From NCBI GenBank assembly GCA_018664115.1, contig JABJOX010000004.1:10089-74088 (forward strand): a DNA stretch of 64,000 nucleotides. Direction: 5' to 3'. The stretch is from Candidatus Woesearchaeota archaeon (GTDB lineage Archaea > Nanobdellota > Nanobdellia > Woesearchaeales > GW2011-AR9). Within the stretch, counting starts at the first letter, position 1. The number at the start of each line of letters is the position of its first letter. This document shows, in pieces, positions 4,569 through 55,492 of this stretch. Made by a program: the position numbers and the translations under genes. Under the pieces are notes generated by a model, which was not told the DNA's origin, ran no database searches, and worked only from the letters and a program-made list of their open reading frames with translations.

Positions 4569-4686
4569 TAATGGACGGCCATAGGGGCGCGGTTCACCTG
4601 TTCCCATTTCGAACACAGAAGTTAAGAGTGCCTCCGTACCGGGGTGTACTGCGTTTTTGCGCGGGAAATCCAGTAAGCTGTCCACT
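4569..4686 (+). rRNA. rrf: 5S ribosomal RNA (about 118 nt), stand-alone
   Basis: Sequence ggacggccataggggcgcggttcacctgttcccatttcgaacacagaagttaagagtgcctccgtaccggggtgtactgcg...gctgtccact. It carries the universal 5S loop motifs (CCCATTTCGAAC...GAAGTTAAG...GTACTG) and 5'/3' end complementarity (helix I). Confidence 0.85.
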
Positions 4687-7257: not shown

Positions 7258-7259
7258 AA

Positions 7260-10424: not shown

Positions 10425-10583
10425 TATTAAAATTATTTTCATAGGGTGTTGGGATTTTAGAATTATTGACTATTATGGATTTAAAAAATTAATGAGAAAT
10501 AAAGTTTTGTTTAATATCCAAAATATTTATAAACTAAACGCTTTAAAAGAGAATGGATTTGAGTATTGTGGGGTAGGGAGGAA
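10425..10583 (+). pseudogene. Decayed duplicate of the 3' end of ugd (about 50 codons). Its stop overlaps the ATG of the downstream glycosyltransferase (ATGA).
   Basis: 10521-10583 aligns to 9281-9344 at about 84% identity (aaatatttat.aac.a....ctttaaaagagaa.ggatttga.tatt.tgg.gt.gggaggaaa). Weaker similarity continues upstream to about 10440. It translates as ...NIYKLNALKENGFEYCGVGRK*, compared with the ugd C-terminus NIYEPETLKENGFEYYGVGRK. Confidence 0.6.
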
Positions 10584-11441
10584 ATGATAGTATCTATTGT
10601 GATTATTTTTGATGAATTGAGGAAAGAGAAGCTTAATCGACTAATTAATTCTTTTAAAGATCAATTAAATCAACACGAATCAGAAGTAATATTGGTCCAT
10701 GAATCTATAGAAAAAGATAACAGTTTACATTTACCAACAAATTTCAAATATTTTATAGTTCCTCCTAAAAGGGGGATAGCATTTAATCGGAATAAAGGCA
10801 TAGAATACTCTAAGGGGGAAATAATTGTTTTTATTGATGATGATTGTTGGGTTCAGGAGAAATGGTTATCTTCTTTACTTGAATCTTTTAATGATAACAA
10901 GACTTTAGTAACTACTAGTGGAACAAGAATTCCCAAATCTAATCTTGTTGGTAACTGTATTTCTGCTTTAGGTTTTCCGGGCGGTGGTAATTTGGGCTTT
11001 GAAAAAGTTTGGAAAGTTTCTAATGAGGGTTATACCAATCATCTTGCTGTTGGAAATTCTGCTCTTAATAGAAAAGTTTTTGAATTAGTTGGCACTTTTG
11101 ACGAAAGTATGACTTTTGGAGCTGAAGATGCAGAAATATCTTATCGTTTAGAAAAAGCAGGAATATTAATAAAATATGTCCCTAATGCTTACGCTTATCA
11201 TGAAGCGAGAACTACTTTATCTTCATTTTCAAGATGGCAGATAAGGAGAGGAAGAGCAAATTATTATTTTAAAAAGAAGGTGGGTAAAGTGGGTAGTTTT
11301 ATTAAATTACGTCTGTGGTCGACTAAGAATATTTTATCGGAAAATAAATTCAATTTAAGACTTCCTTTAATTTTAATATTGTTATCTTTTAGTTTTGTTT
11401 TACAACAGATGGGTTACATTTATGAGAGGTTTAAAAAATGA
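10584..11441 (+). CDS. Glycosyltransferase family 2
   Basis: VFIDDDCWVQEKW (DxD region), GT-A fold pattern and C-terminal TM segment. ATG at 10584 is preceded by GGGAGG. The track start at 10566 is an alternative upstream start. Confidence 0.8.
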   Translation: MIVSIVIIFDELRKEKLNRLINSFKDQLNQHESEVILVHESIEKDNSLHLPTNFKYFIVPPKRGIAFNRNKGIEYSKGEIIVFIDDDCWVQEKWLSSLLESFNDNKTLVTTSGTRIPKSNLVGNCISALGFPGGGNLGFEKVWKVSNEGYTNHLAVGNSALNRKVFELVGTFDESMTFGAEDAEISYRLEKAGILIKYVPNAYAYHEARTTLSSFSRWQIRRGRANYYFKKKVGKVGSFIKLRLWSTKNILSENKFNLRLPLILILLSFSFVLQQMGYIYERFKK

Positions 11442-12907
11442 AAGTAATATTAGTGAATCCAAGAATTTATGATGTACCTAATCATCCTTTAGGTATACTC
11501 TATATCGCTGGTTATTTAGAAAAAAATGGTTTTGAAGTTGAAGTAATAGATCCTAATTTTGATGAATCTGCAATCGAAATTGCAAAAAAAATAATCTCTC
11601 TCAACCCCGACGTGGTTGGGATTAGTACAAGAACTCCACAATTTGATCATGCTAAAAATATTGCCTCTCATCTAAAATTATCTTCTGATATTCCAATTGT
11701 TTTTGGGGGTCCACATCCAACAGTTCTTCCTCAAGAAGTATTAAAAGAAAATTGTATTGATTTTGTAGCTATTGGTGAAGGCGAAATAACTTTTTCGGAA
11801 CTTTGTGAAGCTTTGAAAGAAAATAAGGGATTTAAGGATGTAAATGGTATAGGTTATAAAAAAAACGGAGAACTAATCTTTACAGAATCAAGGGAATTAA
11901 TTCCAGATTTAGATTCAATACCTTTCCCTGCAAGACATCTTCTTCCTTCAAAATGGTACTTTGCCCCTCCTAGAATAAGGGGGATATGGACAAAAAGCAC
12001 CGCTACTATTATGGCTTCAAGAGGTTGTCCATATCGGTGTATTTTTTGCGGAAGCCACCGTATTTTTGGAAGAAAAACTAGATTTAGATCTCCAGAGAAT
12101 ATTATTGAAGAACTTAAACATTTAAGAAATAAATACCATATTGATGCGGTCTGGTTTGCTGACGATACTTTCACACTTCACCCCGCTTGGGTAACCAAAC
12201 TTTGCAGTTTAATAAAACAGCAAGGGTGGAACGATTTTAAGTGGGTAGCGCAAGCAAGAGTTAATACTGTTAGTTATGAATTACTTAAAACAATGAAATC
12301 TGCGGGATGTGTGCAAATAGATTTTGGTGTTGAATCTGGTTCGCCAAAAGTGCTAAAAATATTAAAAAAAGATATAACACCTGAAAAAGTAATTGAGGCT
12401 TTTAATATTGCTAAAAAAGCAGGATTGCTTAGATATACTAGTTTTATTATAGGAACTCCGGGAGAAAAAGAAGAAGATTTGAGATTAACATTTAAACTCT
12501 TAAAAAAAATAAAACCTGATTATGTGGATTTTTATTTTATGACGCCTTATCCAGGTACAGAAGTTTACCAAATTGCAAAAGAATTAGGTGTTTTTGAAAA
12601 AGGTGTTTCTTTTAATAAATGGCTTCTTGGAAAACACAGTGATAAGCCAGTTATGTGTACAGATTTGTCTGAAAAAAAAATTATTGAATGGAGATCAAAA
12701 TTGTACAACGCCAGTTTTATTAGGAATTATAAAACTTTGATGAGAAATCCTTCTTTTATATTTGGGGGGTTGATGATAGCTTTTAAAGGAATTGGTGGTT
12801 TAAGAAAAGGATTAGGCCGTTTTTTTAAAACTGGCAAAATAGATAGTATTTTTGTAGAATTATTAGTAAATTATCGTATGAAAACAAAAAAACAATTTTA
12901 TAAATAA
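11438..12907 (+). CDS. Cobalamin (B12)-binding radical SAM protein (class B radical SAM, putative methyltransferase)
   Basis: N-terminal B12-binding Rossmann-like region (GILYIAGYLEKNGFEVEVIDPN) and radical SAM CxxxCxxC (ASRGCPYRCIFCGS). Confidence 0.8.
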   Translation: MKVILVNPRIYDVPNHPLGILYIAGYLEKNGFEVEVIDPNFDESAIEIAKKIISLNPDVVGISTRTPQFDHAKNIASHLKLSSDIPIVFGGPHPTVLPQEVLKENCIDFVAIGEGEITFSELCEALKENKGFKDVNGIGYKKNGELIFTESRELIPDLDSIPFPARHLLPSKWYFAPPRIRGIWTKSTATIMASRGCPYRCIFCGSHRIFGRKTRFRSPENIIEELKHLRNKYHIDAVWFADDTFTLHPAWVTKLCSLIKQQGWNDFKWVAQARVNTVSYELLKTMKSAGCVQIDFGVESGSPKVLKILKKDITPEKVIEAFNIAKKAGLLRYTSFIIGTPGEKEEDLRLTFKLLKKIKPDYVDFYFMTPYPGTEVYQIAKELGVFEKGVSFNKWLLGKHSDKPVMCTDLSEKKIIEWRSKLYNASFIRNYKTLMRNPSFIFGGLMIAFKGIGGLRKGLGRFFKTGKIDSIFVELLVNYRMKTKKQFYK

Positions 12908-12909
12908 AA

Positions 12910-13794
12910 ATGCAAAAAGTAAATCCTTTGATAAGTGTTATAATCCCCTCATATAATTCAGAAAGATTTATCTCAAAATGTTTATTTTCTTTATTATCTC
13001 AAAAAGTTGATTTTGATTATGAAATCATTGTTGTTGATAGTTCAAAAGATAACACTTCAGAAATAATAAAAGATAAATTTCCTTCCGTTAAACTTATCCA
13101 CTTAAAAGAACAAACCTTGCCGGGAGCGGGAAGAAATATAGGGATTTCAGAAGCTAAAGGTAAAATAATAGCATTTACGGATTCTGATTGTATTGTTAAT
13201 AATAATTGGCTCCAAACCGCTTTAGAAAGTATTAATAAGGGGTATAGTGTTGTTGGTGGATCTGTTAAAAACGCAAATTCACAGACACTAATTAGTATTG
13301 CTGATTACTTCCTTACATTTAACGAATTTCTTCCTACAATGCCAAAGAGAGAAGTTTTATTTATGCCCACATGTAACCTTATTTGTAAAAAAGAAGTTTT
13401 TGAAGATATCGGTGGTTTTCCTCCCCATTTAGCAGCAGGTGAAGACACTATTTTTAATTATAAAGCTTCCAAGAAGTATAAATTATTATTTAATCCAAGA
13501 ATAAAAATTAGTCACAATAATCGTGATTCTTTTAAAAAATTCTTTAAACATCATTATAATTTTGGATTACATGCAGCATTACTTCGAAAAAAATATAAAT
13601 TACCAGGTAATATATTTGTTAAATATCCCCCTTTGATTGTGTTAATTCCTTTTGTTCGTTTTTTTTTAATATCTTTAAGAATGGTCCGTTGGAATTGGAA
13701 AATGTTACCTTCTTTTATTGTTAGTTCTCCATTAATTTTCATTGGAATATTGATTTGGAGTGTGGGTTTTATGAAAAACATGTGGTGGTCTTAA
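12910..13794 (+). CDS. Glycosyltransferase family 2
   Basis: ISVIIPSYNSERFISKCL...TDSDC (DxD), GT2 pattern. Confidence 0.8.
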   Translation: MQKVNPLISVIIPSYNSERFISKCLFSLLSQKVDFDYEIIVVDSSKDNTSEIIKDKFPSVKLIHLKEQTLPGAGRNIGISEAKGKIIAFTDSDCIVNNNWLQTALESINKGYSVVGGSVKNANSQTLISIADYFLTFNEFLPTMPKREVLFMPTCNLICKKEVFEDIGGFPPHLAAGEDTIFNYKASKKYKLLFNPRIKISHNNRDSFKKFFKHHYNFGLHAALLRKKYKLPGNIFVKYPPLIVLIPFVRFFLISLRMVRWNWKMLPSFIVSSPLIFIGILIWSVGFMKNMWWS

Positions 13795-13853
13795 TAACAC
13801 AATAAAATCATTTCATCATAAGTTTTTTAAATGATACCCTCTGCAATCAATAA

Positions 13854-15035
13854 ATGCGAAGATCCTATCTTAATTTGTTGAAATACTATTTTATTAAAAA
13901 TCCTAAAACCCCTATCCAATTAATTCATTTTGTAACTTCAAAATGCAATGCTAAATGTAAACATTGTTTTTTTTGGAGTAAACTTAATTCTAAAGATGAA
14001 TTATCTTTAGAAGAGATAGATAAATTTAGTAAAAGTTTACCTGATTTGATTATTTTAAACATAAGCGGCGGTGAACCTTTTATTCGTCAAGACTTTGCAG
14101 AAATAATAAAAACTTATTATCGTAATACTCCGGTTAAAGAAGTAGCTGTTCCGACTAATGGTACTTTTACAAGTAAAATTGTAAAAGATTGTATTGACAT
14201 TTTAGAAAATTGTCCTGATTTAAATTTAAATGTGGTTATTTCTCTTGACGGCCCTGAAAATATTCATGATGAGATTAGGCAAGTTAATGATTGTTTTAAT
14301 ATGGCAATTAAAACTTTTAATGAATTAAAATTATTACAAAAAAAATATTCTCACCTGCAACTTTCAGTAATTTCAACTTTAACTTCTATTAATCAGGATA
14401 AATTAGAAGAATTCCATAGTTATGTTAAAAATGTAATGAAACCAGATGTTTTTGGGCTAAATTTAATTAGGGGAGAAGCAAGGGTGATGAATTTATTTGG
14501 AGTTGACTTAAATAAGTATAAACTTTTTTTCCAACTTCAATCTAAATCTTCTAAAAAAGGAATTAAATCTATAATTAGAGATTATATGAATAAATTAAGA
14601 ACTGGAATGATAATAAAGACTATAGAAAATAAAAAATTTATCATTCCTTGTAAAGCAGGAAGTTTGATGGCGGTAATATATGAACAAGGAGAGGTATATC
14701 CTTGTGAACTTTTAAATAATAAATCTTTAGGTAATATTAAAGATTTCAATTATAATTTTAAGAAATTATGGGCGTCACAAAAAACTAAAGAGACTTGTAA
14801 GTTTATTAGAGAGACAAAATGTTATTGTACCCATGAATGTTTTCAGAGGTTTAATATTATTTATAATCCAAAATTTATCACTAAACATGCTAGTAAAGCA
14901 ATATTCAGAAAATCAAAAATAATTAATGCTCTTAAAATCAATTATGAAGAGAAAAATAATCAGCAAGAGATGGTTGAAATAGGACAATTAAGAGGAGTAA
15001 GACATGATTACAAAGAAAATTACAAAGAAAAATAG
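13854..15035 (+). CDS. Radical SAM protein with C-terminal SPASM/twitch-like Cys cluster
   Basis: FVTSKCNAKCKHCFF (CxxxCxxC) plus downstream Cys-rich stretch CKAG...PCELL...CKF...CYCTHECF. Confidence 0.75.
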   Translation: MRRSYLNLLKYYFIKNPKTPIQLIHFVTSKCNAKCKHCFFWSKLNSKDELSLEEIDKFSKSLPDLIILNISGGEPFIRQDFAEIIKTYYRNTPVKEVAVPTNGTFTSKIVKDCIDILENCPDLNLNVVISLDGPENIHDEIRQVNDCFNMAIKTFNELKLLQKKYSHLQLSVISTLTSINQDKLEEFHSYVKNVMKPDVFGLNLIRGEARVMNLFGVDLNKYKLFFQLQSKSSKKGIKSIIRDYMNKLRTGMIIKTIENKKFIIPCKAGSLMAVIYEQGEVYPCELLNNKSLGNIKDFNYNFKKLWASQKTKETCKFIRETKCYCTHECFQRFNIIYNPKFITKHASKAIFRKSKIINALKINYEEKNNQQEMVEIGQLRGVRHDYKENYKEK

Positions 15036-15101: not shown

Positions 15102-16019
15102 ATGTCTCTGATTATAATAATCTTTATAAATTACCTATTAATCATAACACTAATGTTACATAAACTTATGAATAAATATAATCGGTTTTCATTATTTCGT
15201 TATTTATATCATGGTTTTTTCCGGTTGTACTGTGATCATGTTAGTGATTACGTGATGATATCTTTTCCTAAAAGTGGCCATACTTGGTTAAGAGTTATGC
15301 TTGCCAAAGCATTTTCACTTCATTATGGTCTTTCTTCTCTTAATCTTGATCTTATTTTAATGGCAAAAGAAAAAAAAGGGATTCCAAAAATTGCTATTTA
15401 TCATGAAATATCTCCATTATTCTCAGTTAACTTCAGTTTAAAAAATAAAAAATTTTTGGGTTCATACGCAGAATCTGAAAAGGTTTTCATACGCACTCCT
15501 CTTAAAAAGAAAAAAATTATTTTTCTTGTACGAGACCCCAGAGATGTTGTAGTGTCGTTATTTTTTCATTTGACAAAGCGAAACAATTTTTATTTTAGAA
15601 ATGAGATGTCTCATTTTCTTAAAGAACCATTTAGTCTTACTAAAATCTTAAATTATATGAATCTTTGGTGTAAGGAAATGCAACGACGCCCAAATGAATT
15701 TTTATTTATTCGTTATGAGGATATGAAAACAAATACTGCAGAACAGTTAAGAAGAGTATTAGATTTCTTGGAAATAAATGTATCATATGATATTTTGAAT
15801 GAAGCTGTTGCTTTTGGTTCAATTGATAACATGCGTAAGATGGAAAAATGCAATTTGTTTGCCGATTATCGTTTGCAAGCAAAAAATCCAAGTGATCCTG
15901 AATCTTATAAAGTAAGAAAAGCTAAAGTGGGTGGTTATACTGATTATTTAAATCCTCAAGACTTGGAATATATAAATTTACGAATAAGTAAAGAGCTAAA
16001 TTCTGTATTTGGATATTAA
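15102..16019 (+). CDS. PAPS-dependent sulfotransferase with N-terminal membrane anchor
   Basis: 5'-PSB motif ISFPKSGHTWL (PKSGTTW-like) and 3'-PB motif VRDPRDVVVS (RDPxDxxVS). Hydrophobic N-terminus MSLIIIIFINYLLIITLML. Confidence 0.8.
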   Translation: MSLIIIIFINYLLIITLMLHKLMNKYNRFSLFRYLYHGFFRLYCDHVSDYVMISFPKSGHTWLRVMLAKAFSLHYGLSSLNLDLILMAKEKKGIPKIAIYHEISPLFSVNFSLKNKKFLGSYAESEKVFIRTPLKKKKIIFLVRDPRDVVVSLFFHLTKRNNFYFRNEMSHFLKEPFSLTKILNYMNLWCKEMQRRPNEFLFIRYEDMKTNTAEQLRRVLDFLEINVSYDILNEAVAFGSIDNMRKMEKCNLFADYRLQAKNPSDPESYKVRKAKVGGYTDYLNPQDLEYINLRISKELNSVFGY

Positions 16020-17455
16020 CTTGATTTTTTTAAAATTGATTTTACTAATTTTAGGTCTTTGATTGTGATTTCATTTAGAATTATGAGAATTAAAAAATAA
16101 GTTATTAACCATACCCCATAGTGGATTAATAGTTTCCACCCTGAAGAAATAGTTCTTGTTGCCATTATATAAATAATGAATGAGGATATAACAATTCTAA
16201 TGAATGACTTAGCAGTTATAATGACGGTTCTAAATCTTTTATATATGTAAATTAATGATAATAAAACACTTAAAATTGCAGTTATTAATAATGAGATGGC
16301 AGCTCCAATGGCGCCGTATATTGGGACAAAGATTAATGTAAGGGTGAGAGATAAGAATACACCTATCGTGGTTATAATTAGATCTATATTTGGTTTTCCT
16401 GCCCCATTGATTATAGAAGCGAATACTCTAAAAATAGAAAAGCAAGTTGTACTTATAATTAATATACTTAGAATGGCCCCCGCTGATACAAATGAGGAGG
16501 TATAAAAAAAGGTTACTAATTCATCTGCCGTTGTTGCAACAATAATCATGATCGGGGTGATAAGAAGTAGTAAATATCTTGTTGATTGACGAATGTATTT
16601 TTGAATTAGTTTATTGTTTTTTTCCGAAATGGCTTTTGAGATTGAAGGCATTAAAGTGAGGGATAAAGGTTGAAAAATAAGAAAAGAAACATTTGATAAT
16701 GCTGCAGCAGCGGTATAGAATCCAATTAAAGAATAATCTATACCTAAAAGTTTTAGAATGAATGGATTTGCGTTTTTAATAATTGTAAAGTTAATTGCAG
16801 TTAAAGTAATTGGTATTGAAAAATTAATGAGTTTTTTATTTTTAAATTCTCCAGTTGATTTCATTTTATCTTTAAGATAATAATGGCTAAGCCATATTGT
16901 GAGTGTAACTGAAATAAAATAACCCACTAGTATCCCCCAAATCTTAAATCCCATTAATACAAAAAGGAAAACTAATCCCACTCGAAGAATATGATGAACA
17001 CTTTTGACAATGGATTGTTCAGCGAACATACGTAGACCATTTAGATATCCGTTTGTGTAGAGTGAACGAATAGCTATTGGAACAACCATTATTCCCATGA
17101 AAATTATATAATACGTGAGGGAAGAATCTTTTAGTGCTTTAGCAATTAGTTTGGAAAAAATAATGTAAATAAATCCAAAACTTAATGAAGAATAGAGTTG
17201 TAATCTAAAAGATTTTACAAAAATATTTTTAAGACCATTTTTAGATTCTGCGATAAATTTTGAGACCGATCTTGGAATTCCGGTGTTAAGAAATGAAGTA
17301 TTTAAAAGATAAAGAGACATAAGTACGCCAAATATACCATAAATTTCCGAACCCAAAATTCTTCCAATTCCAATATTAATACTATAATTTGCGAGAACCG
17401 CTAGGAACTGAGCAATTATTAAATATGCAGTTCCACTAGCCAATTTTTTCTTCAT
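16016..17455 (-). CDS. Polysaccharide/oligosaccharide flippase (Wzx-like, MOP superfamily)
   Basis: 479 aa, about 12-14 predicted TM helices, with a Wzx-like layout. Confidence 0.7.
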   Translation of the reverse strand: MKKKLASGTAYLIIAQFLAVLANYSINIGIGRILGSEIYGIFGVLMSLYLLNTSFLNTGIPRSVSKFIAESKNGLKNIFVKSFRLQLYSSLSFGFIYIIFSKLIAKALKDSSLTYYIIFMGIMVVPIAIRSLYTNGYLNGLRMFAEQSIVKSVHHILRVGLVFLFVLMGFKIWGILVGYFISVTLTIWLSHYYLKDKMKSTGEFKNKKLINFSIPITLTAINFTIIKNANPFILKLLGIDYSLIGFYTAAAALSNVSFLIFQPLSLTLMPSISKAISEKNNKLIQKYIRQSTRYLLLLITPIMIIVATTADELVTFFYTSSFVSAGAILSILIISTTCFSIFRVFASIINGAGKPNIDLIITTIGVFLSLTLTLIFVPIYGAIGAAISLLITAILSVLLSLIYIYKRFRTVIITAKSFIRIVISSFIIYIMATRTISSGWKLLIHYGVWLITYFLILIILNEITIKDLKLVKSILKKSS

Positions 17456-18327
17456 TTTTTAGCAAGAAAAATAACTGCGTTTCCAAAACTGAATGGTCGT
17501 TTTTTAGAATCACTCCATTTTTGTAATTTTAATGATAGTTTTCTTGGAAGTATACTATAGTTACTATAAAATCCTCCTGCTCCACATCTACAAATAGTGA
17601 AACCAGCTTTTTTAATGAGAAATCTTAAACGTTTTGGTGTTATCAAGTTTTTTCGAGGAAGTTTTGTTTTTTTAATTAATCTGAGTTTTTTTTTACTTTT
17701 AAGATTGAATATAATGGCTATGAACAGAATCCAGTTTAAAATAAATGTATTTCTGATATAGAACTCATATTTCCCCCCAGTAATAATTGTGTAAATGACT
17801 TTAAATAATCCGAAAGGATTATCAAGATAATGTAACCCATAAAGATTTTCTTGACCGATGATAAAATATCCTCCTCTTTTAAGAACACGCTTTGCTTCAC
17901 GAAGACATTGCAATGGTGATTCCATATATTGCAAGAACCCTATGCCAAATACAACATCAAAGTAATCATCTTTAAATTGTAAATTTTTTGCATCCCCCAC
18001 ATTGAGACTAAATTTACCTTCAGTATTCGTAACTTTATAACAATTTTTTCTTGCAATTTTACAAAGGGTTTCTGAAATATCAATACCATGAAGATAATAA
18101 CCTTTTCTTATAATTTTAGCTGAAGTTATTCCTGCTCCAAATCCCAGTTCCAGAATTTTTGATTTTTGTGGCATGTTAAGGCTATCTAAAAATTTTATAA
18201 CCTTTTGTTCTCTTGCTTTTAGTCTTAAACCCTGAAAATCTTCTTTATAATAATAATCTTCCCATTTTGATTGTTGATCTGAATTCCACCAATCTTCCGA
18301 ACTCTTTTGATTTATATTTGAATCCAT
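17452..18327 (-). CDS. Class I SAM-dependent methyltransferase
   Basis: ILELGFGAGITSAKI (motif I, GxGxG) ... DVVFGIG. Overlaps the flippase by 4 nt. Confidence 0.75.
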   Translation of the reverse strand: MDSNINQKSSEDWWNSDQQSKWEDYYYKEDFQGLRLKAREQKVIKFLDSLNMPQKSKILELGFGAGITSAKIIRKGYYLHGIDISETLCKIARKNCYKVTNTEGKFSLNVGDAKNLQFKDDYFDVVFGIGFLQYMESPLQCLREAKRVLKRGGYFIIGQENLYGLHYLDNPFGLFKVIYTIITGGKYEFYIRNTFILNWILFIAIIFNLKSKKKLRLIKKTKLPRKNLITPKRLRFLIKKAGFTICRCGAGGFYSNYSILPRKLSLKLQKWSDSKKRPFSFGNAVIFLAKK

Positions 18328-18895: not shown

Positions 18896-19615
18896 ATGGA
18901 TCAAAAAAAACATATTATAACTATAGATGGTTCAGGTTGGACTGGCAAATCTTCTACTGCAAAAGCATTAGCAAGAATTCTTAACTTTAAGCATATTAAT
19001 ACAGGCTCAATGTTTAGGGCTGTAGCTTGGAAAGCAAAACAATTAGGTGTTTTATTAGAAGACAATCAGGAAATAATAAAAATTACTAAAAATATGGTGA
19101 TTAACTTTAGAATAGAAAATAATTCTCAGCAGATTTTTGTTGATGGAGAAAATATAACTGCATTTTTATTATCTTCTTCATTGGTACCTTTAGCAGGAAA
19201 AGTTGCTCAAATTCCCGAAGTAAGAAAAGTTCTTTTGGAGCTTCAAAGGAAAATGGCAAAGGAAGGAAATGCTATCTTCGAAGGAAGAGACATGGGAACA
19301 GTTGTTTTTCCTAATGCTGATTGGAAATTTTATCTTGAAGCGTCTGTGCCTATTAAGATTAAAAGATTTCTGAAGATGCTTTCAAATGAAGAAAAAAATA
19401 AATATACTCTTGAAGAAGTAAAAAAGATAATAGAAGAAACAGACGAAAAGGATAAAAATAGAGAATTTGCTCCATTAAGAAAACCAAACAACGCAATCTT
19501 TTATGATAATAGTGAAAGTCCAACCCCTGAACAAGATGCAATTGTATTATGGTATTATATCACCCATCAAAAAGAAATTATTGATAATGCTTTAATTTTA
19601 CAATCTAGATTATGA
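18896..19615 (+). CDS. cmk: Cytidylate kinase (bacterial-type CMP kinase)
   Basis: ITIDGSGWTGKSSTAKALARILNFKHINTGSMFRAVAWKA. This matches the Cmk N-terminus pattern IDGPxGxGKxT...LDTGAMYRAVA. Confidence 0.75.
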   Translation: MDQKKHIITIDGSGWTGKSSTAKALARILNFKHINTGSMFRAVAWKAKQLGVLLEDNQEIIKITKNMVINFRIENNSQQIFVDGENITAFLLSSSLVPLAGKVAQIPEVRKVLLELQRKMAKEGNAIFEGRDMGTVVFPNADWKFYLEASVPIKIKRFLKMLSNEEKNKYTLEEVKKIIEETDEKDKNREFAPLRKPNNAIFYDNSESPTPEQDAIVLWYYITHQKEIIDNALILQSRL

Positions 19616-20328
19616 ATGAAACAAAAACATTAACAACAAAAGAACTTAGAGTTAAAGGAAGAAAAAAATGCTGGAGTCCATCCCAACGTTTTTGGATGGA
19701 AGTTTCTCTTTATTTAACTACACCGTTCTTAAGAACTTCCATTACTCCTAATATGATTACTGTTACTTGGATTATTTTAGAGATTTTTGCATTTTATCTT
19801 TTTACTTTGGGCGAATATTGGATTAATGTTCTAGCTGTAATTTTGTTCAATTTTATTGCATTAATTGGGGATCATATTGATGGTAATCTTGCAAGGATGA
19901 AAGAAAAGTTCAGTTTACTGGGACCTTATTTAGAGCAGTTAGGAATTTTCTTTGGTACACCTTTAATTTTTCTAGGATTAGCGATTGGAAATTATTTTCG
20001 TTATCAAAATTTTCTTTTTTTAATAATTAGTCTTGTAGGGGTATTGTTTTGGCTCTTTGAGAAGATTATTAGAATAAATCCTGTTTGGTTCAGTGAGAGG
20101 CAAGAAGAAATAGTAAAGAAGTTTTACGTTAAAGCATCATTTAGATCCGCTTCAAAGACAAGAATATTTTTTGAGATATTTCGTAGAGGGCAACCTTTTA
20201 ATTTCCTTTTCTTTTGTGTTGTTTTTGATTATACTCAACTTGCATCTTTGGTATATTCTTTTCTTTTCCTTTTTGAGTTTTGTAGAAAACTTTATATTAA
20301 TATAAAGAATCTAAATAAAAAAGTGTAA
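19612..20328 (+). CDS. CDP-alcohol phosphatidyltransferase-like integral membrane protein (divergent motif)
   Basis: GDHIDGNLAR...LLGPYLEQLG fits the D-x2-D-G-x2-A-R part of the CDP-OH phosphotransferase signature. Multi-TM, 238 aa, ATGA overlap with cmk. Confidence 0.5.
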   Translation: MNETKTLTTKELRVKGRKKCWSPSQRFWMEVSLYLTTPFLRTSITPNMITVTWIILEIFAFYLFTLGEYWINVLAVILFNFIALIGDHIDGNLARMKEKFSLLGPYLEQLGIFFGTPLIFLGLAIGNYFRYQNFLFLIISLVGVLFWLFEKIIRINPVWFSERQEEIVKKFYVKASFRSASKTRIFFEIFRRGQPFNFLFFCVVFDYTQLASLVYSFLFLFEFCRKLYINIKNLNKKV

Positions 20329-20385: not shown

Positions 20386-21108
20386 TTAAAAATCGTCTAC
20401 TTGTGAAAATACAGATTTTTCATTAGCAATATATTGGGTAATTATTTTTCTTACTAGTTCTAGAAAAAAGAATAAAGTATAGAGGATTAATGTGTAGTTT
20501 GGGTATCCAAAAACAACTCCCCAAAACAAAATATTGAAAAAGTGTTCTAGTCTAAATAGGGCAAAAACATTATAAATTAGTTTATGTTGGAATCTTAAAA
20601 GAGACTTTTTCCCAGTATCACTAATTAAGTTTCTTTGTTCTTTTGGATACCACATTGGATTAAGCGTTATTGCTTTATTCAGTAAAAAGAATATTACTGC
20701 TAAGATTCCGTAGAGCAAGTAAATTGCATTATTATACCACCGAAATACTCCAATTGAAAATGTAAGTAATAAAATTGAGTTGGCAAGATAGTGACCAAGC
20801 TGATCAAGGTAAATTCCATTAATGGAAAATTGTTTTCTATAACGGGCAACAATGCCATCACTACAATCTATAATAAAGAATGCTTGAAAAAATATAAGGG
20901 AGATAATCATAGTTAATTGATCTCCTGTTGCTAGAAATAATGCCGAAATTATTTGTCCAATAATCCATATTATTGTAATTTGATTCGGAGTTAAAGGAGT
21001 ATAAAGAAATAACTTTGCTGGATAATAAGCTAAATTATTCATCAACCGATAAATTGGGTCTCCTCTCTTTGCATTTGCTTTTTCTTTAAGCTCACGAATC
21101 GTCGGCAT
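20386..21108 (-). CDS. CDP-alcohol phosphatidyltransferase-like integral membrane protein (paralog, convergent)
   Basis: IIDCSDGIVARYRKQFSINGIYLDQLG gives D-x2-D-G-x2-A-R...G-x3-D. Multi-TM, 240 aa. Confidence 0.55.
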   Translation of the reverse strand: MPTIRELKEKANAKRGDPIYRLMNNLAYYPAKLFLYTPLTPNQITIIWIIGQIISALFLATGDQLTMIISLIFFQAFFIIDCSDGIVARYRKQFSINGIYLDQLGHYLANSILLLTFSIGVFRWYNNAIYLLYGILAVIFFLLNKAITLNPMWYPKEQRNLISDTGKKSLLRFQHKLIYNVFALFRLEHFFNILFWGVVFGYPNYTLILYTLFFFLELVRKIITQYIANEKSVFSQVDDF

Positions 21109-21176: not shown

Positions 21177-23978
21177 TTATTGTCCTTTTAAGAATAATAT
21201 TAATTGATTAACACTTTCATTTAAACTAATTTGTTGGGTTTCTAACTTTATGTCTGGACTATCTGGAATTTCATAAGGATTACTTTCTGCAACACCAATA
21301 AAATTATTAATTTCTCCGGCTAATGCTTTTTTGTAAAGTCCTTTCGTATCCCGCCTGATACATTCATCTAAGGAAGCATTGATGAATAGTTCTTTGAAGT
21401 TTTCTCCAACAATTAAACGGACCATCGTCCGATCTTCTTTGTAAGGAGAAATTATTGGTACTAAAACAAAATCATTATTTGCTGCTCTTTCTTTAGCTAA
21501 TTCCGCAATCAAACGATTATTTTCTCTTATATCCTCTCTAGAGAATCCAAGATCTTTGTGTAACGTATCTCTAACAACATCACCATCAAGAATTTCAACT
21601 TTATTTCCAAGACTTTCAAGTTTCTTTTTAAGTTCTAAAGCAATTGTTGTCTTTCCAGATCCAGACAAGCCTGTAAACCAGATTACTTTTCCTTCTTTGT
21701 TAGATATGTTATTTATTTTATTATATTCATTATTTTCATTTGGCTCAACTTTCTTCATTTCTTCTCTAACAAAAACTTCTTCTCCATTTTTAATACTTTC
21801 AACAATTAAACTGGAGACTTCTGGACGCATAAACCACTCTGGTGGAACTTGACCCAATTCAAATCTTTTTCTTGCTTCTGTTCCACTAATATGAAGCGGT
21901 TCTAACTCTTCGCCACTCTCCGTTTCTTTTTCGTGGACATGATGATTCAATTTATCCGAGTAGAATACTTTTCCATATTTTATAGGCTTAATCCCGATTT
22001 CAGGAAACTTATCAAAGATTTGATGCGAAGCATTAGGATGGTAGTAATCGCCTACACCTGTATGATCTCTCCCAACAATAAAATGGCTACACCCAAAATT
22101 TTTCCTGCAGAGAGCAGTAAATATAGCTTCTCTGGGACCAGCATAACGTGAGAATGTTGAAAATGTTGAAAATACTACTTTATTTTTTGGATAAATATTT
22201 TTCATCATTTCTTCATAACTTTTAATTATAAATTTAGAATTATAATCCCCAACTTTCTTTTTCCCAATAATGGGGTGAACAAATAATCCATCACAATTTT
22301 CTTTTTTCATTGCATCTAATTGAATGAACTCATGACCGCGATGAATAACATTTCTAGTATGGAAACCCACTATTTTAACCCACCCTCGATCTTCAAATAA
22401 TTTTCTGACTTGCTTTGGAGTTAGTTCATATTCTTTATGTTCAGATTCTCTTCTTTTAATCAAATTAATTTTTCCTCCAAGCAAAACAGGTTTCATATTA
22501 AAGACTATTTTTGCCCCAGGATGATTTTTATCATCAGTACAATACAATTTACTGATTACTTCTTCTTTATCATAATTATACTTTTCTTTAACTTTCATCG
22601 TTGCAACAATTTCATTCTTATCATTGGTTAAAATAATAGTTTCATCTAAATCAATTTGACTAGCAATCTCTTCAGAAACATCTAAAGTTACTGGTAATGG
22701 CCATACAACCCCATTTTTAAGTTTCATATGATCTAAGATCCCTTGAAAATCTTCTTTACCCATAAAACCTTCAATCGGACTAAATGTCCCAATAGCTATC
22801 TGTTCTACATCCATTAATTGTTCAGCATTCAATTTAATCTTTTTTAAAGAGTTTACATTTTCTGGAATCTCTTTGACAAATCTTTCAACTAATTTTCCTC
22901 CGTGTGGTTCAATTAAAGAACTAGTTTGAGAATTATCAGAGAGGTATTCATGATGGCTAATATTCTCAATATCATCGACATACTTTGAATGTTCAATCAG
23001 TTTATTTAACATATTAACACATTCCATTGGGTTTTCACCAATGGCTGTTTCTGCAGAAAGGATTAACCCACTTGCTCCGTCAATTATTGTATTTATTACA
23101 TCATTAACTTCTGCCCTAGTTGGTTTTTTATTAACAATCATAGATTCTAAAAGATTAGTTGCAATATATACAGGAGTATTTCTTTCTTTGGCTTTTTTAA
23201 GAATAATCTTTTGAATCAGAGGTATTTTTTCAATGGGGACTTCTTTACTCATATCTCCCCGATCCATCAATACAGCATCAGATTTCTCAATAATTTTATC
23301 AATGTCATGTAGTGATTCTTCTGCTTCAACTTTAGAAATAATATACATAGCATTATTAGTTACTTTCCTAACTTCATCAAGATCTTGGCTTTTTCTGACA
23401 AAGGACAAAGCTAAATGGCCAATCCCCTCTTCTAGCCCAATATTGATTGATTGTTTATCCTTTTCAGATAATACTGGTAAATGATAAACTTTATTGTTTC
23501 CAGGACTAACAATTACTGCTTTATTGTTTCCTAAATTACCTTCAGTCATTATTCTTGCAGAAATGTATCCCTCTTTAATAGTTGAAATATCAGAAATTTT
23601 AAGTATTAATGTATCAAAATCTACAAAAAGTAAATCACCTGTCTCTAATTGTTCTAAAATGTGCCCTGGAGTTAAACAGATCTCTTTTTTGTTTCCTATA
23701 ATTTTATTGCCATAAATTTTAATAATCTCGCCTTCATTATAATGGATGATTTTCTCCTCTAAATCACCAGTTCTTATTTGTGACCCCTCTGTATCAATAA
23801 TAAATGGAATATCAACTTTCTTTGCAATTTTAATGAAATATCTCAAGTCTTCAATACTAGAATGAGACATATTAATTCTAACAAAATCTACGCCCTTATC
23901 TTTTATTTTTTTCAAATCTTCTTCAGTATTTGTTGCTGGACCTAAAGTAACAATAATCTTAACATTTTTTTCTTCCAC
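21177..23978 (-). CDS. Tri-domain protein: pyruvate-kinase-like TIM-barrel domain + ATP sulfurylase + APS kinase (PAPS synthase with N-terminal PK-like module)
   Basis: N-terminal: KIIVTLGPATNT...VRINMSHSS...DTEGSQIRTG...ISKVEAEES...MDRGDMS...IATNLLESM (PK barrel motifs, no C-terminal regulatory domain). Middle: LIEPHGGKLV...GFHTRNVIHRGHE...GRDHTGVG...ISGTEARK (ATP sulfurylase). C-terminal: VIWFTGLSGSGKTTIA...ILDGDVVR (APS kinase P-loop). Confidence 0.85.
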   Translation of the reverse strand: MEEKNVKIIVTLGPATNTEEDLKKIKDKGVDFVRINMSHSSIEDLRYFIKIAKKVDIPFIIDTEGSQIRTGDLEEKIIHYNEGEIIKIYGNKIIGNKKEICLTPGHILEQLETGDLLFVDFDTLILKISDISTIKEGYISARIMTEGNLGNNKAVIVSPGNNKVYHLPVLSEKDKQSINIGLEEGIGHLALSFVRKSQDLDEVRKVTNNAMYIISKVEAEESLHDIDKIIEKSDAVLMDRGDMSKEVPIEKIPLIQKIILKKAKERNTPVYIATNLLESMIVNKKPTRAEVNDVINTIIDGASGLILSAETAIGENPMECVNMLNKLIEHSKYVDDIENISHHEYLSDNSQTSSLIEPHGGKLVERFVKEIPENVNSLKKIKLNAEQLMDVEQIAIGTFSPIEGFMGKEDFQGILDHMKLKNGVVWPLPVTLDVSEEIASQIDLDETIILTNDKNEIVATMKVKEKYNYDKEEVISKLYCTDDKNHPGAKIVFNMKPVLLGGKINLIKRRESEHKEYELTPKQVRKLFEDRGWVKIVGFHTRNVIHRGHEFIQLDAMKKENCDGLFVHPIIGKKKVGDYNSKFIIKSYEEMMKNIYPKNKVVFSTFSTFSRYAGPREAIFTALCRKNFGCSHFIVGRDHTGVGDYYHPNASHQIFDKFPEIGIKPIKYGKVFYSDKLNHHVHEKETESGEELEPLHISGTEARKRFELGQVPPEWFMRPEVSSLIVESIKNGEEVFVREEMKKVEPNENNEYNKINNISNKEGKVIWFTGLSGSGKTTIALELKKKLESLGNKVEILDGDVVRDTLHKDLGFSREDIRENNRLIAELAKERAANNDFVLVPIISPYKEDRTMVRLIVGENFKELFINASLDECIRRDTKGLYKKALAGEINNFIGVAESNPYEIPDSPDIKLETQQISLNESVNQLILFLKGQ

Positions 23979-24092: not shown

Positions 24093-24794
24093 TCACTTCT
24101 CCCAAAACAATTCTCTATTTACAAAAGCTCTCACTAATTTATCATTAAAAGCAGTATCACCTAATTTTATTCTTTCTGGGTGCCAAGTTACTGCTGCAAT
24201 TGGATAATCCGGATGATAAGCAGCTTCTATTGTTTCATCACTAGAACAGACAGCAAACGCTTTTAATTGCGAAGATAATATTTCGGGAAGAATTGCTTGG
24301 TTATGATAGGAATTCACTAAAACTTTTTCCAAGCCAAAAAATTTTTTAGTTTGATCATCAGTTAAAATAACCTCATGTTCGGCGGCCACATGTTTAACTT
24401 GGCTGTTTGTTTCATCTTTTATACTTTGTAATAAACTACCAGCAAAATGAACATTAAGATAATGTAACCCCCGACAAATACCTAAGATAGGAAGTTTTTT
24501 TTCAATTGCGTAATCGACAATTGCTTTCTCAGTTCTCTCCCGATCTAATGACCATTTGTTAGGAAATTTCATTTCTTGTCCGTACAAGCTGGGATGGACT
24601 CCGTTACCTCCGGTTAGAATTACACCTTCAACACCTAACTCTTCTAAATATTCTGCTGGATTTTCTAAAGAATTAGGAATTGGCACTAAAGTAATTCCAA
24701 ATTTAGGATAATATTGAGTATATTCTGTTTCCAGGATATCAACTGTTCCACCATATTCTGTTTCCAGTTGTTTTGTAGTAATTGCAACTCTCAT
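24093..24794 (-). CDS. Class-I glutamine amidotransferase-like / peptidase C26 (gamma-glutamyl hydrolase-like)
   Basis: KKLPILGICRGLHYLNV (Cys nucleophile) and NSYHNQAI (His). Paralog of 9671-10378. Start is 2 nt after the stop of the 1515-aa gene. Confidence 0.7.
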   Translation of the reverse strand: MRVAITTKQLETEYGGTVDILETEYTQYYPKFGITLVPIPNSLENPAEYLEELGVEGVILTGGNGVHPSLYGQEMKFPNKWSLDRERTEKAIVDYAIEKKLPILGICRGLHYLNVHFAGSLLQSIKDETNSQVKHVAAEHEVILTDDQTKKFFGLEKVLVNSYHNQAILPEILSSQLKAFAVCSSDETIEAAYHPDYPIAAVTWHPERIKLGDTAFNDKLVRAFVNRELFWEK

Positions 24795-24795
24795 T

Positions 24796-27700
24796 TTAAT
24801 CTAATAAGTTCAAATCAATAAACTTTTTAATTTCTCCGTTTTCAGTCCATTTAAGTGCATTTTCATAATCTTCATTTGTGTCAAATTCCATCCATCCCCG
24901 TTGAATCTTATTAGCCATTACTGTCCATCCATTATCAATCCAACTTTGAAGAAGATTAGTCATATTAATTTTTCTTACTGGCTTCCCATCAATTAAAGGT
25001 GTATCCCAATGTGAAGCTTTGATTTTCCTCCAGTGTTCCAAGACTTTTGGAACAAAATTTTTAGAGATGAAAGTTAAACTTGCATCTCTGCCATGTAATC
25101 TAGCTTCGTCAATAACATTTTCCTCTCCAATCTCAATAATAGAACCGTCTGGATTTAAAGTACAAGATTCAGAATCTTCTTTCCAATCACCATTACGGGC
25201 GGTCCAATAATCTTTATAATCAACATCAATTGCCTTACTAAGACTGAAATTTTCTTCCATAATTTGTTTAATAACTTTTGGTTCATGAATTGTGTCTGCG
25301 TAAGCAATTAATATGTCGCTACTGCCATCAAATTCTGCTTCTGCACAGAACAAAGAAGCAACCATATTTGTATTTTCCCAATCAGGATTATTATAATATT
25401 TAATTCCTGGGAAATTTATCTTTTCTGCGTTGAAACCGCGGACAATAGAGATATCAGTAAGGCCGGCTTTTTGAAATGTTTCAATTTGTCTTTGGAGAAG
25501 CGGTTTTCCTGCTAAAGGCAGTAATCCTTTCGGAAGAATTTCTGTATATTTATGTAATCTAGAACCTCGTCCAGCAGCCAAAATTATTACTTTCATTTTT
25601 TTATTCTTTAGTGTTTCATTTTCTTTATCTTCTTTTTTTTCATTACCTTTCAAAGTAGTAATCGGTCTAACCTGCAATAAATGTAGTTCATTATTATAAT
25701 AACACCATTCGCATTCAATTTCTTTGCCATAATCTTGCCGTAAACTTTCTCCTAATTGAACTAACTCTTTAATCTCATCTTCGTTAAGCACTCTGCCAGT
25801 CTTTTTAGAAACTTCTAATGACCCATCCATAATATAGGAGTAAGCTTCCCTTTCTTCATTAATTATATTAGCTTCAATTTCACTCCCATTGATAAAATAT
25901 TGATCAGGTTTGACTTTACCGGATACCACCGATTCACCAACACCAAAATTTGCATCAATCCAAATTCCTTCTTTCAAACTATCGCTAGGGTTTTGTGAGA
26001 ACAAAACCCCTGCTTTTTCACTTTGCAGAAATTCTTGTATAACAACAGAAATGTAAAACTTTTCTTGACTTATTCCTGATTGGTGAGCATAAAGCAAAAC
26101 ATTTTCTTTAAATGCAGAAGCAATACATTCTTTAATTGCTGAAAACAAGCTTTTTTCTTCTATTCCTAAGAGGGTCTTGAATTGGCCAGCAAAACTTGCT
26201 TTACTAGAATCTTCACTAGAGGCTGAACTTCTTACTGCTACCGCTTTTGTGTTTAATTGTTTAAACTGACCCAAAACTTCATTCTTGAATTCGTCGCTAA
26301 ATTGATAATCATTCACAAACTTTCGTAATGCTTTTAATTTTTCTTGTGATTGTTCTGGATAATTAAAATCAATGATGTAATCTTCTTTGTCGTTTAAGAA
26401 TGAATTAATAATTTGGTCATAAGCTCTTCTTGTTACGCTAAACGCTTTTGGAACATTATATCTCATCGAACATTTGGCAAGATTCTTTCCTTTCCCCCCT
26501 ACCAAAGAATATTCCTCTTCATTTATCTCATTTAGACTTGATGTGTATGGGATGCTTCTTAGAAAAAGACTTTTTTTAATTGTTATGAGGGGTTCTTTTT
26601 TATCTTCTGTTTTCTTTAAATCTATACCCTGAATATTTTTGGCTTTAAATTCTTCTGTTTCTCTTTTAGTTAATTTTCTAACAAATTTGTTATAAGTATC
26701 CACTTCAATAAAATCTCCTGTTTTAAAGAAACGTGTTGAGATTCTCGTTCCAACTAAACAAGGGATATTTAATTCTCTGGAAATAATTGCTGCGTGGCTG
26801 GTTATTCCACCTTCATCTGTAATTATTCCTTTAGTTTTGTGAAGAATGGAAACCATTGCTGGATGAGTCATTGTTGTAATATAAATGTCATCAGAGGTCA
26901 TTTCTTTTTTTGTTTTCATTAGCGATTTAATACTATCATCAGTTACTACTAAAGCTCTCCCTTTAACTCTTCCTAAATTTCCGACATCTCCACTTAACCC
27001 TTTAAGATTTTCTGGGATAGTATTAACTTCTTTTGAGTATTTTGGAATAAAGCTATACTCGGTAGATTCTGGGGATATTTCTATGTTAAAATATTGTAAT
27101 CTTTTCTTAACTTCTTCAGGAGTTAGTTTCTTATTTTCTTCTAAGAAATCTTTAACATCTTTTATCCTATAAGAAAACAAAAAGTCTTCAATATTCAGCT
27201 CTAATCTTTTTGCTATCTCTTTGAATAAACCTAAGAATAATAATTCATAACCTGCCCAGATATTTTTATTCTCTAACCTTATCAAAGCAATCTCTTGTAG
27301 ATAAAGGCATAGTTCTTTTAGTTTATTTGAACTTTGTCTGGCAAGACATTCTTCCTGTTTTTGCTTTAGAATCTTGCTTTCATTTATTGTTTTATTAATT
27401 TCATTTTCTAATTCTTGTGCATTAGTCTCGGAAATTTCGTTTTCTAAAAATTGATTGATAATTTCCCATGAATATGTGTTGATAAATCTCCAAGAATATT
27501 TTAATGCATACTCTTTAATGGCTTTTGGACCAACATTTATTTCCCTAATCAGTTTTAATTTGTCTTTTTTTTCTTTCAAAAATAAATCTTCTTTTGTTGG
27601 TGTTGTTAATAATTGTAATAACTCTTCTTTATTATCTGCAATAATCAAGGAAAGAATTCTGTCTTTTACTGCTTTTGTTGGTTCTTCTCGAGAGTATGGA

Positions 27701-31803: not shown

Positions 31804-31916
31804 TTTTAACTTAAACGAACAAAATCACTTTAAAAACTTATGATACATTAACTTTAATATATTAATCACTCTTCCAAAAAGTATATAAAATAAAAGATTA
31901 GGGTTTCTTTGAAGAA

Positions 31917-32693: not shown

Positions 32694-32726
32694 TTTTTAC
32701 AAAAGTTATCATTTGATAAACAAAAG

Positions 32727-33575: not shown

Positions 33576-33595
33576 TACATACAAAAAGGTGAACT

Positions 33596-55485: not shown

Positions 55486-55492
55486 CTTCTTT

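Follow-up and report, generated by a model that had tools for sequence, protein, structure and literature searches.

A predicted PAPS-dependent sulfotransferase in a glycan biosynthesis locus of a Woesearchaeota archaeon

Do DPANN archaea use the classical sulfation route, with 3′-phosphoadenosine 5′-phosphosulfate (PAPS) as the donor, to modify their surface glycans? This question is opened by a gene at 15102-16019 of a 64-kb stretch of DNA (hereafter the window) from contig JABJOX010000004.1 of a Candidatus Woesearchaeota archaeon. A preliminary description had read its product as a membrane-anchored PAPS sulfotransferase inside an archaeal glycan island. We know of no PAPS-type sulfotransferase that has been characterised in archaea. 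As we read it, the locus forms a compact set composed of a presumably soluble enzyme of 288 amino acids (aa), a one-chain PAPS synthase, glycosyltransferases and a flippase. We consider it probable that the enzyme is a cytoplasmic, PAPS-dependent O-sulfotransferase of ~288 aa, which modifies a lipid-linked surface glycan before this glycan is flipped.

The sulfotransferase and its predicted PAPS site

The open reading frame (ORF) 15102..16019(+) encodes 305 aa. Residue numbers given here refer to this long form, in which Met18 is the start of the 288-aa form. The protein is labelled "hypothetical protein" at NCBI (MBT4804615.1). When compared with Pfam, the 305-aa ORF matched Sulfotransfer_1 with 98.7 bits (gathering cutoff 22; E 4.7e-28) over residues 49-299, covering profile positions 3-251 of 255. 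Sulfotransfer_3 was matched as well (E 2e-14), so that both families proposed for a profile search in the preliminary description were recovered. A phmmer search against the PDB sequences returned 49 sulfotransferases, headed by Arabidopsis 1q44 (E 2.3e-13) and SOT16 (8k9y) and followed by cytosolic SULTs, Teg12/14 and StaL. The preliminary description had singled out PKSGHTW as the 5′-phosphosulfate-binding (5′-PSB) loop and RDPRDVVVS as the 3′-phosphate-binding (3′-PB) motif. Both motifs aligned with the PAPS-binding positions of solved sulfotransferases (Table 1). In the same alignments, VRKAKVGGY was paired with FRKGEIGGW (RKGEIGGW in 1q44; RKGKVGDW in 8k9y), and YEDM with the YEEL/YETM of solved sulfotransferases. 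Furthermore, G59, W62, R144, D148, S152 and R272 were invariant in an alignment of 106 sequences, while K57, T61, H101, Y205-E206-D207, G277 and G278 were conserved in at least 90%. An AlphaFold model built on this alignment had a mean predicted local distance difference test (pLDDT) score of 93.8 and a predicted template modelling (pTM) score of 0.91, and the best 50 Foldseek matches in the PDB were all sulfotransferases (probability 1.00, TM-score 0.5-0.62). Since the profile, alignment, conservation and fold results agree, they confirmed the identity of the sulfotransferase and the placement of both PAPS motifs. Judged by its sequence and model, the product of 15102-16019 is a genuine PAPS-type sulfotransferase in which the predicted PAPS site is intact.

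In the mechanism that we propose, the 5′-PSB loop (P56-W62) would hold the 5′-phosphosulfate, and R144/S152 together with R272/G277/G278 would hold the 3′-phosphate. W62 and Y205, which we equate with the residues that contact adenine in SULTs and which are both conserved family-wide, would contact the adenine. The catalytic histidine of SULTs follows a strand, and in the AlphaFold model His101 is positioned directly after the strand formed by residues 97-100. Conceivably, this candidate base deprotonates the acceptor hydroxyl, and in-line transfer of the sulfuryl group from PAPS would then yield a sulfate ester and 3′-phosphoadenosine 5′-phosphate (PAP). Close to His101, an insertion at residues ~103-133 (15408-15500) was observed in the archaeal clade only. 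It is modelled as a small β-hairpin with a pLDDT of 75-80, is absent from the bacterial members, and represents a possible acceptor-specificity element.

The enzyme shares its Pfam family, its fold and the motifs PKSGxTW, RxPxDxxVS, YED and RKxxGxW with the cytosolic SULTs and plant SOTs (1q44, SOT16 8k9y, human SULT1B1 3ckl and SULT1E1). It differs from them in that the identity is only 15-22%, in its conserved basic/aromatic N-terminal helix and clade-specific insertion, and in a gene context of glycan biosynthesis rather than small-molecule metabolism. The preliminary description had also called the enzymes of archaeal glycan sulfation poorly characterised. This is fair but in need of an update, as Agl30 and Agl31 of Hbt. 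salinarum were identified in 2025; no other N-glycan sulfotransferases of archaea are known to have been identified by experiment (PMC11980604). The pair belongs to the sulfatase/alkaline-phosphatase type, with one member soluble and the other membrane-associated (PMC11980604). With them, our protein would share the proposed role, namely the cytoplasmic sulfation of a lipid-linked glycan before flipping; unlike them, it is a canonical PAPS-binding Sulfotransfer_1 protein. An Agl30/Agl31-type identity was ruled out by its SULT-like fold and by the absence of any sulfatase/alkaline-phosphatase match in Pfam. A review of 2024 listed the Sulfotransfer_2 genes of Woese- and Pacearchaeota as uncharacterised (PMC11625862), and the literature that we searched held nothing specific on sulfotransferases of DPANN archaea.

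PAPS supply, gene context and the acceptor

The PAPS required for this reaction would be supplied by a 933-aa fusion protein encoded 5.2 kb from the sulfotransferase gene, in which a pyruvate-kinase (PK) barrel (residues 4-321) is joined to PUA_2, ATP sulfurylase (Sat) and adenosine 5′-phosphosulfate (APS) kinase (CysC) domains. This PK-Sat-CysC protein had been named as a PAPS synthase in the preliminary description, and its domains and catalytic motifs indeed proved to be intact. The Pfam E-values were 3.9e-75 for ATP sulfurylase and 1.2e-50 for APS kinase, the equivalog-domain models for the sulfurylase (TIGR00339) and the APS kinase (TIGR00455) both scored above their cutoffs, and the motifs HTRNVIHRGH, GRDHTG, GLSGSGKT and DGD were all present. 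Compared with canonical pyruvate kinase, the PK part presumably keeps most motifs of the active site (RINMSHS, DTEGSQIRTG, ISKVE, DRGD, ATNLLESM), with K226 of ISKVE as the putative active-site lysine, and lacks the C-terminal domain. The barrel may use phosphoenolpyruvate (PEP) to regenerate ATP from the ADP that is formed by the APS kinase. Like the bifunctional PAPS synthases (Sat-CysC, NCBIfam PRK05537; animal PAPSS), the fusion carries sulfurylase and APS kinase with intact motifs in one chain, but it differs from these by the additional N-terminal PK barrel without the PK C-terminal domain.

A database search revealed more than 120 clusters of PK-PUA-Sat proteins with or without CysC, at 51-89% identity (P0160-P0278). 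These came from Woese-, Pace- and Nanoarchaeota and from bacteria of the candidate phyla radiation (CPR), including Paceibacterota, Sungbacteria, Doudnabacteria, Yanofskybacteria and Minisyncoccia. All three PK-Sat loci that were sampled (L090, L091, L092) were Wzx/Wzy/glycosyltransferase (GT) clusters adjoining a sulfotransferase-type gene. A Sulfotransfer_2 gene was located nearby in the Paceibacterota locus, and a Sulfotransfer_1 gene together with an Inositol_P/CysQ-type gene in the Sungbacteria locus. In the Nanoarchaeota locus (L092 8735-12761; NZBF01000010), a Sulfatase-family gene and a GT2 gene are directly followed by PK-PUA-Sat and a separate APS kinase, an arrangement which hints that sulfatase-like 'sulfotransferases' of the Agl30/Agl31 type may also draw on APS/PAPS. 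No description of a PK-ATP sulfurylase fusion was found in the literature searched, and this PK-fused PAPS synthase, common to DPANN and CPR, is a more unusual item than the sulfotransferase itself.

The gene context was likewise in agreement with glycan biosynthesis, to which the window is almost wholly devoted. It encodes nucleotidyltransferases, PMM, UDP-glucose dehydrogenase, five GT2 and one GT4 glycosyltransferase, one GT-C protein (PMT_2), two Wzx flippases, aminotransferases, dehydratases, methyltransferases, radical S-adenosylmethionine (SAM) enzymes and a NeuB/CMP-transferase set. Exact copies of eight window proteins have been deposited as Candidatus Woesearchaeota archaeon, and the archaeal glycan island of the preliminary description was thus borne out by neighbours that include glycosyltransferases, both Wzx-type flippases and sugar-nucleotide enzymes. 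The sulfotransferase gene is the last of a co-directional row of GT2, B12-radical SAM, GT2 and radical SAM/SPASM genes, and at least 23 contigs, which stem from several samples, carry the same locus.

Homologs of the sulfotransferase that share 48-65% identity with it make up a small archaeal clade. The other relatives, at 30-41% identity over the catalytic domain, are bacterial and belong to many phyla; archaeal loci accounted for two of the 80 best loci in a one-genome-per-species version of GTDB. Five distinct archaeal ortholog loci were read, namely the window, L001/L005, L003, L006 and L086. Sulfate activation, as PK-Sat and/or APS kinase, was encoded within 10 kb of the sulfotransferase in all five, with PK-Sat adjoining it in L006. 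A homolog of the CDP-alcohol phosphotransferases (CDP-OH_P_transf) was found within the same distance in 5/5 loci, and Wzx in 4/5. Relatives also carry an APS kinase fused to an Inositol_P (CysQ/IMPase-family) domain (L001/L002 11118-12440, L003 20755-end, L086 12247-13518), which presumably unites PAPS-making and PAP-degrading activity in one chain. In L086, the genes for CDP-OH_P_transf, a P-loop kinase and the sulfotransferase follow each other in one direction and are convergent with Wzx. In L003, which also carries homologs of the upstream GT2 and radical SAM genes, CDP-OH_P_transf starts 0 nucleotides (nt) after the sulfotransferase and is followed by an NTP transferase gene, while an inositol-1-phosphate synthase gene lies divergently upstream.

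A tblastn search with the window neighbours showed that almost none of them are shared with the 78 bacterial loci. Pfam matches among 101 flanking ORFs from 31 bacterial loci were led by Sulfotransfer_3 (10), Sulfotransfer_1 (9), Sulfotransfer_2 (3) and Sulfotransfer_4 (2), and GT4 glycosyltransferases (6), sugar-nucleotide epimerases/dehydratases and UDP-glucose dehydrogenase were also present; the ORFs were called naively and many are spurious, so these counts are lower bounds. The bacterial locus L085 contains six sulfotransferase genes in a row, together with GT10 and methyltransferase genes. Like the archaeal enzyme, the bacterial Sulfotransfer_1/3 proteins in polysaccharide loci (of Chloroflexota, Cyanobacteria, Planctomycetota, Thioalkalivibrio and others) are of similar length, have no transmembrane (TM) anchor, and are clustered with glycosyltransferases and other sulfotransferases. 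Unlike these, the archaeal clade has the extra insertion and a link to PK-Sat and CDP-alcohol phosphotransferases, both of which are mostly lacking from the bacterial loci of the family.

With these neighbours, the most likely acceptor would be a lipid-linked oligosaccharide built on the cytoplasmic face by the adjacent GT2 enzymes. The sulfated intermediate would be exported by the Wzx flippase encoded by the convergently overlapping gene, and PAP would be removed by a CysQ-type phosphatase encoded outside the window; relatives fuse one to APS kinase. Sulfation prior to flipping has an archaeal precedent, because the tetrasaccharide of Halobacterium is sulfated while it is bound to dolichol-phosphate (PMC11980604). 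The constant presence of a CDP-alcohol phosphotransferase suggests that the same product may also receive a phospho-substituent from a CDP-activated donor. Predicting a sulfated glycan, as the preliminary description did, is reasonable, and the comparative gene context reinforced it through the sulfate activation in all five loci and the polysaccharide loci of relatives. The "complete sulfation system" of that description held for PAPS synthesis and transfer, but not beyond.

Several observations weigh against this reading. Neither a PAP phosphatase (CysQ) nor a sulfate transporter was found in the 64-kb window. The phmmer pairwise alignment put the SULT histidine elsewhere and not on His101. 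Small molecules or glycopeptide aglycones are the acceptors of the closest relatives with a solved structure, and the sequence alone gives no pointer to a carbohydrate acceptor. The CDP-alcohol phosphotransferase link and the inositol-1-phosphate synthase of L003 would fit an acceptor of the lipid head-group or phospho-alcohol kind just as well. Finally, ATG 15102 is preceded by a TATA-like box at -42 only, which leaves a minor possibility that a TM-bearing long form is also made.

Of the alternatives, the one that survives best retains the enzyme and its cofactor and replaces the glycan by the product of the co-located CDP-alcohol phosphotransferase. This could be a polar-lipid head group (of the archaetidyl-inositol/-glycerol type, compare the phosphatidylglycerosulfate of haloarchaea), an inositol/glycerol-phosphate decoration or a solute, and taken jointly we regard these options as unlikely, though deserving of attention. 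They would explain why a CDP-OH_P_transf homolog accompanies the sulfotransferase in 5/5 loci, co-directionally and directly adjoining it in L003 and L086, and why inositol-1-phosphate synthase is divergently adjacent in L003. In addition, the best NCBIfam matches of both CDP-OH_P_transf proteins in the window were (archae)phosphatidylinositol-phosphate synthases and DIPP synthase, and the best PDB match was AF2299. These NCBIfam matches, however, scored ~37 bits against cutoffs of 170-180, and probing of the window with proteins of the relatives revealed no inositol-1-phosphate synthase, nor a second sulfotransferase or a CysQ/Inositol_P phosphatase. Moreover, the sulfotransferase gene overlaps or converges with Wzx in the window and in L086, and both the wider sulfotransferase family and the PK-Sat fusion reside in polysaccharide loci. 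We therefore retain the lipid-linked glycan as the preferred acceptor.

In surveys of DPANN and CPR, sat is assigned to sulfur cycling or sulfur metabolism (PMC8091004, PMC12153355). This raises an annotation issue, since sat in the window and in its relatives is fused to PK (and APS kinase) and located in glycan loci beside sulfotransferases. As a tentative extension, which we would not yet favour, the sulfotransferase might belong to a self-contained cassette for 'anionic surface decoration', which has been exchanged between DPANN archaea and CPR bacteria and has the PK-barrel-fused PAPS synthase as its signature. If so, PEP would directly drive the costly activation of sulfate via the PK barrel, and ultrasmall episymbiotic cells would commonly bear sulfated surface glycans, which in some lineages would also carry phospho- or phosphoramidate groups. 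Likewise, 'sat' genes that are counted as sulfur-cycling capacity in DPANN/CPR would serve glycan sulfation.

The start codon and the supposed membrane anchor

The preliminary description had endowed the enzyme with an N-terminal TM anchor, which amounts to a type II-like carbohydrate sulfotransferase that is held by a TM anchor and translated from ATG 15102. If translated, residues 2-19 (SLIIIIFINYLLIITLML) are hydrophobic enough for a TM helix; this strongly hydrophobic stretch is followed by basic residues, and AlphaFold draws a helix at residues 2-25. The 17-aa extension has a Kyte-Doolittle hydropathy of 2.92 over 17 aa, and the 305-aa form is used by three JGI/MetaClust gene calls, and by these only. 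Yet, a hydrophobic N-terminus was present in just 1 of 120 family members, the exception being the 305-aa form of this very protein. The two closest homologs, P0002 (Woesearchaeota CG10, 65% identical; MLKVIKD...) and P0009 (67% identical; MLHKLKDKG...), begin at the position of Met18, from where the query reads MLHKLMNKY.... The 288-aa form is also the one in the NCBI annotation and in the gene calls on 33 contigs.

No consistent Shine-Dalgarno signal that could discriminate between the three candidate starts was detectable among the window genes, and we therefore used the geometry of the TATA box instead. The motif TTTAWAW was found at -36..-25 of the start codon in 14 of 52 window genes, where ~2% would be expected from its overall frequency; such boxes are located upstream of, for example, 13854, 18896, 29433(-), 37406 and 46014. 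This points to mostly leaderless archaeal transcripts of the window genes. ATG 15153 (Met18) has its box at the canonical -30 position, within the stretch supposed to encode the anchor, and the same box precedes the Met18-equivalent starts of orthologs that head their own transcription units, at -29 in L001 and at -30 in L006. A stop codon is located 3 codons upstream of ATG 15102, and by our estimate a stop-free run of 17 codons upstream of a true start would occur by chance in ~1 in 5 cases at 27-30% GC. Three independent contigs carrying the same locus were at least 99.99% identical and offered no polymorphisms informative on the 17-codon extension.

Based on its occurrence in 1/120 homologs, the homolog starts, the gene calls and the promoter geometry, we judged the anchor to be probably untranslated; it is most likely the artefact of an over-extended start codon, and an anchored enzyme made from ATG 15102 seems rather improbable to us. 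In practical terms, Met18 is to be taken as the proper start of the enzyme and the hydrophobic leader as spurious, and the TATA-box geometry should be useful for correcting start codons across this metagenome-assembled genome. With or without an anchor, the catalytic domain must be cytoplasmic, because PAPS is made in the cytoplasm. Our preferred enzyme would thus be a cytoplasmic protein that is soluble or at most peripheral at the membrane. This also separates it from the Golgi type II carbohydrate sulfotransferases (NDST, HS3ST, CHST), which likewise depend on PAPS, carry PSB and PB motifs and act on glycans, but possess a true, conserved signal-anchor and, on the lumenal side, a catalytic domain that is fed by a PAPS transporter. 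The enzyme described here, in contrast, has no conserved anchor, and its catalytic domain must face the cytoplasm. The resemblance to carbohydrate sulfotransferases in the preliminary description did not hold up either, as the nearest sequences and folds were those of cytosolic SULTs, plant SOTs and StaL/Teg-type enzymes, and NDST, HS3ST or CHST were absent from the best 50 Foldseek structural matches. A Golgi-type anchored carbohydrate sulfotransferase was accordingly rejected on the anchor count and the cytosolic nature of the nearest structures.

The CDP-linked module and other features of the locus

The coordinates of the features are compiled in Table 1. Among these is a putative module for a CDP-linked product. 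A large fusion of cytidylyltransferase and dikinase, with a Peptidase_C26 hydrolase after it, is present in three of the five archaeal loci (the window; L001 6316-9881; L086 4904-8532). The 1515-aa protein was named L-glutamine-phosphate cytidylyltransferase by JGI, and its dikinase part (PEP-utilizers/PPDK_N) matched PRK05849 partially with 132 bits (cutoff 501), while the L086 ortholog contains a full-length PRK05849-family dikinase (828 bits, cutoff 501) fused to the cytidylyltransferase. The best NCBIfam match of the C26 protein was gamma-glutamyl-CDP-amidate hydrolase, with 80 bits against a cutoff of 250. The module resembles the Cj1416-Cj1418 route of Campylobacter to CDP-phosphoramidate, but its scores in the window fall short of the family cutoffs. 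The Campylobacter donor pathway (Cj1415-Cj1418) comprises a glutamine kinase, a phosphoglutamine cytidylyltransferase, a gamma-glutamyl-CDP-amidate hydrolase and a dedicated CDP-amidate 3′-kinase. Cj1415 is homologous to APS kinases, and the window yielded no separate kinase of this kind. The donor for O-methyl phosphoramidate (MeOPN) modification is CDP-phosphoramidate 3′-phosphate, a PAPS analogue made by Cj1415-Cj1418 (PMC11800397). That the sulfotransferase-fold enzyme moves phosphoramidate from a 3′-phospho-CDP-amidate made by this module, as in Campylobacter MeOPN, is very improbable indeed: the look-alike lies near the sulfotransferase in the window and in two relatives (directly adjacent in L001), but no such module lies within 10 kb in 2/5 loci (L003, L006), in contrast to sulfate activation, which 5/5 loci encode, the sole APS-kinase domain of the window is fused to ATP sulfurylase, the presumed adenine contacts W62 and Y205 are conserved family-wide, and the bacterial relatives sit amid ordinary sulfotransferase clusters without such a module.

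Table 1. Features of the sulfotransferase locus, with window coordinates, strand and basis of assignment
Feature	Coordinates	Strand	Basis or remark
Sulfotransferase coding sequence, most likely form, 288 aa	15153..16019	+	Pfam; NCBI MBT4804615.1 (HON71_00415); homolog starts
5′-phosphosulfate-binding loop PKSGHTW, residues 56-62	15267..15287	+	Aligned column-for-column on PKSGTTW of 1q44, 8k9y, 3ckl
Candidate catalytic base His101	15402..15404	+	Invariant in 20 homologs, at least 90% conserved in 106
3′-phosphate-binding motif RDPRDVVVS, residues 144-152	15531..15557	+	Aligned with RNPKDxxVS of solved SULTs (e.g. RNPKDMFVS)
RKAKVGG, residues 272-278, counterpart of the SULT RKGxxGDW 3′-phosphate loop	15915..15935	+	phmmer alignment
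In-frame upstream extension of 17 codons, MSLIIIIFINYLLIITL	15102..15152	+	TM anchor of the preliminary description; probably untranslated promoter DNA
TATA-like box TTTATAA, -30 from ATG 15153 (Met18)	15123..15129	+	Inside the supposed TM-coding stretch
Co-directional upstream row GT2, B12-radical SAM, GT2, radical SAM/SPASM	10566..15035	+	Pfam
Wzx-type flippase, 3′ end overlapping the sulfotransferase 3′ end by 4 nt (convergent)	16016..17455	-	Polysacc_synt E 8e-23
SAM methyltransferase, immediately upstream of and overlapping the Wzx gene	17452..18327	-	Methyltransf_11 E 7e-21
Bacterial-type CMP kinase, 4-nt overlap with next gene	18896..19615	+	TIGR00017 cmk 180 bits, cutoff 135.55
CDP-alcohol phosphotransferase-family membrane protein	19612..20328	+	CDP-OH_P_transf E 5.8e-9
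Second CDP-alcohol phosphotransferase-family membrane protein	20386..21108	-	Pfam E 2.1e-8; ortholog in L003
PAPS synthase fusion, 933 aa: pyruvate-kinase barrel, PUA_2, ATP sulfurylase, APS kinase	21177..23978	-	Pfam, NCBIfam
CDP-X-forming module: 1515-aa cytidylyltransferase/dikinase/NTP-transferase fusion and Peptidase_C26 hydrolase	24093..29343	-	Pfam; phosphoramidate-pathway-like

The radical SAM/SPASM genes next to the sulfotransferase could suggest a role in the synthesis of a ribosomally synthesised and post-translationally modified peptide or another secondary metabolite. This is unlikely, as there was no evidence for a precursor peptide and the radical SAM homolog in L003 adjoins GT2 genes.

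Further along the window, a fusion of 5-formyl-tetrahydrofolate cyclo-ligase and FolD adjoins genes for a GT2, a formyltransferase and the PMT_2 (GT-C) protein (30367-35065). This arrangement is reminiscent of the bacterial Arn logic, in which formyl-aminoarabinose passes via a lipid carrier to a GT-C enzyme, here with its own supply of formyl-tetrahydrofolate. Directly after the GT-C gene, two ORFs of 650 aa (35147-37099) and 575 aa (37406-39133) have no Pfam match and ~8-9 hydrophobic segments each; they may encode divergent membrane proteins resembling GT-C enzymes, polymerases or oligosaccharyltransferases. A 435-aa ORF without Pfam match (51023-52330) overlaps the end of the second Wzx gene, and in its C-terminal half it shares 36% identity with the small P-loop (dTMP-kinase-like) kinase encoded between CDP-OH_P_transf and the sulfotransferase in L086. 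The region 53593-63561 contains a nonulosonic-acid set of the legionaminic/pseudaminic type, which comprises NeuB, a CMP-transferase fused to a GT28 C-terminal domain, a PIG-L deacetylase, WbqC, a hexapeptide acetyltransferase-aminotransferase fusion, a dehydratase and a radical SAM/SPASM protein.

Towards the other end of the window, a two-subunit 2-oxoacid:ferredoxin oxidoreductase (5518-8015) is encoded within the glycan island, between a nucleotidyltransferase and the UDP-glucose dehydrogenase, and there is a 4-nt overlap between its first gene and the NTP-transferase gene upstream. The 64-kb window contains no tRNAs. An isolated 5S rRNA gene (4571-4686(+); Rfam, 66.9 bits), with no 16S or 23S rRNA gene nearby, is located between sugar-nucleotide genes.

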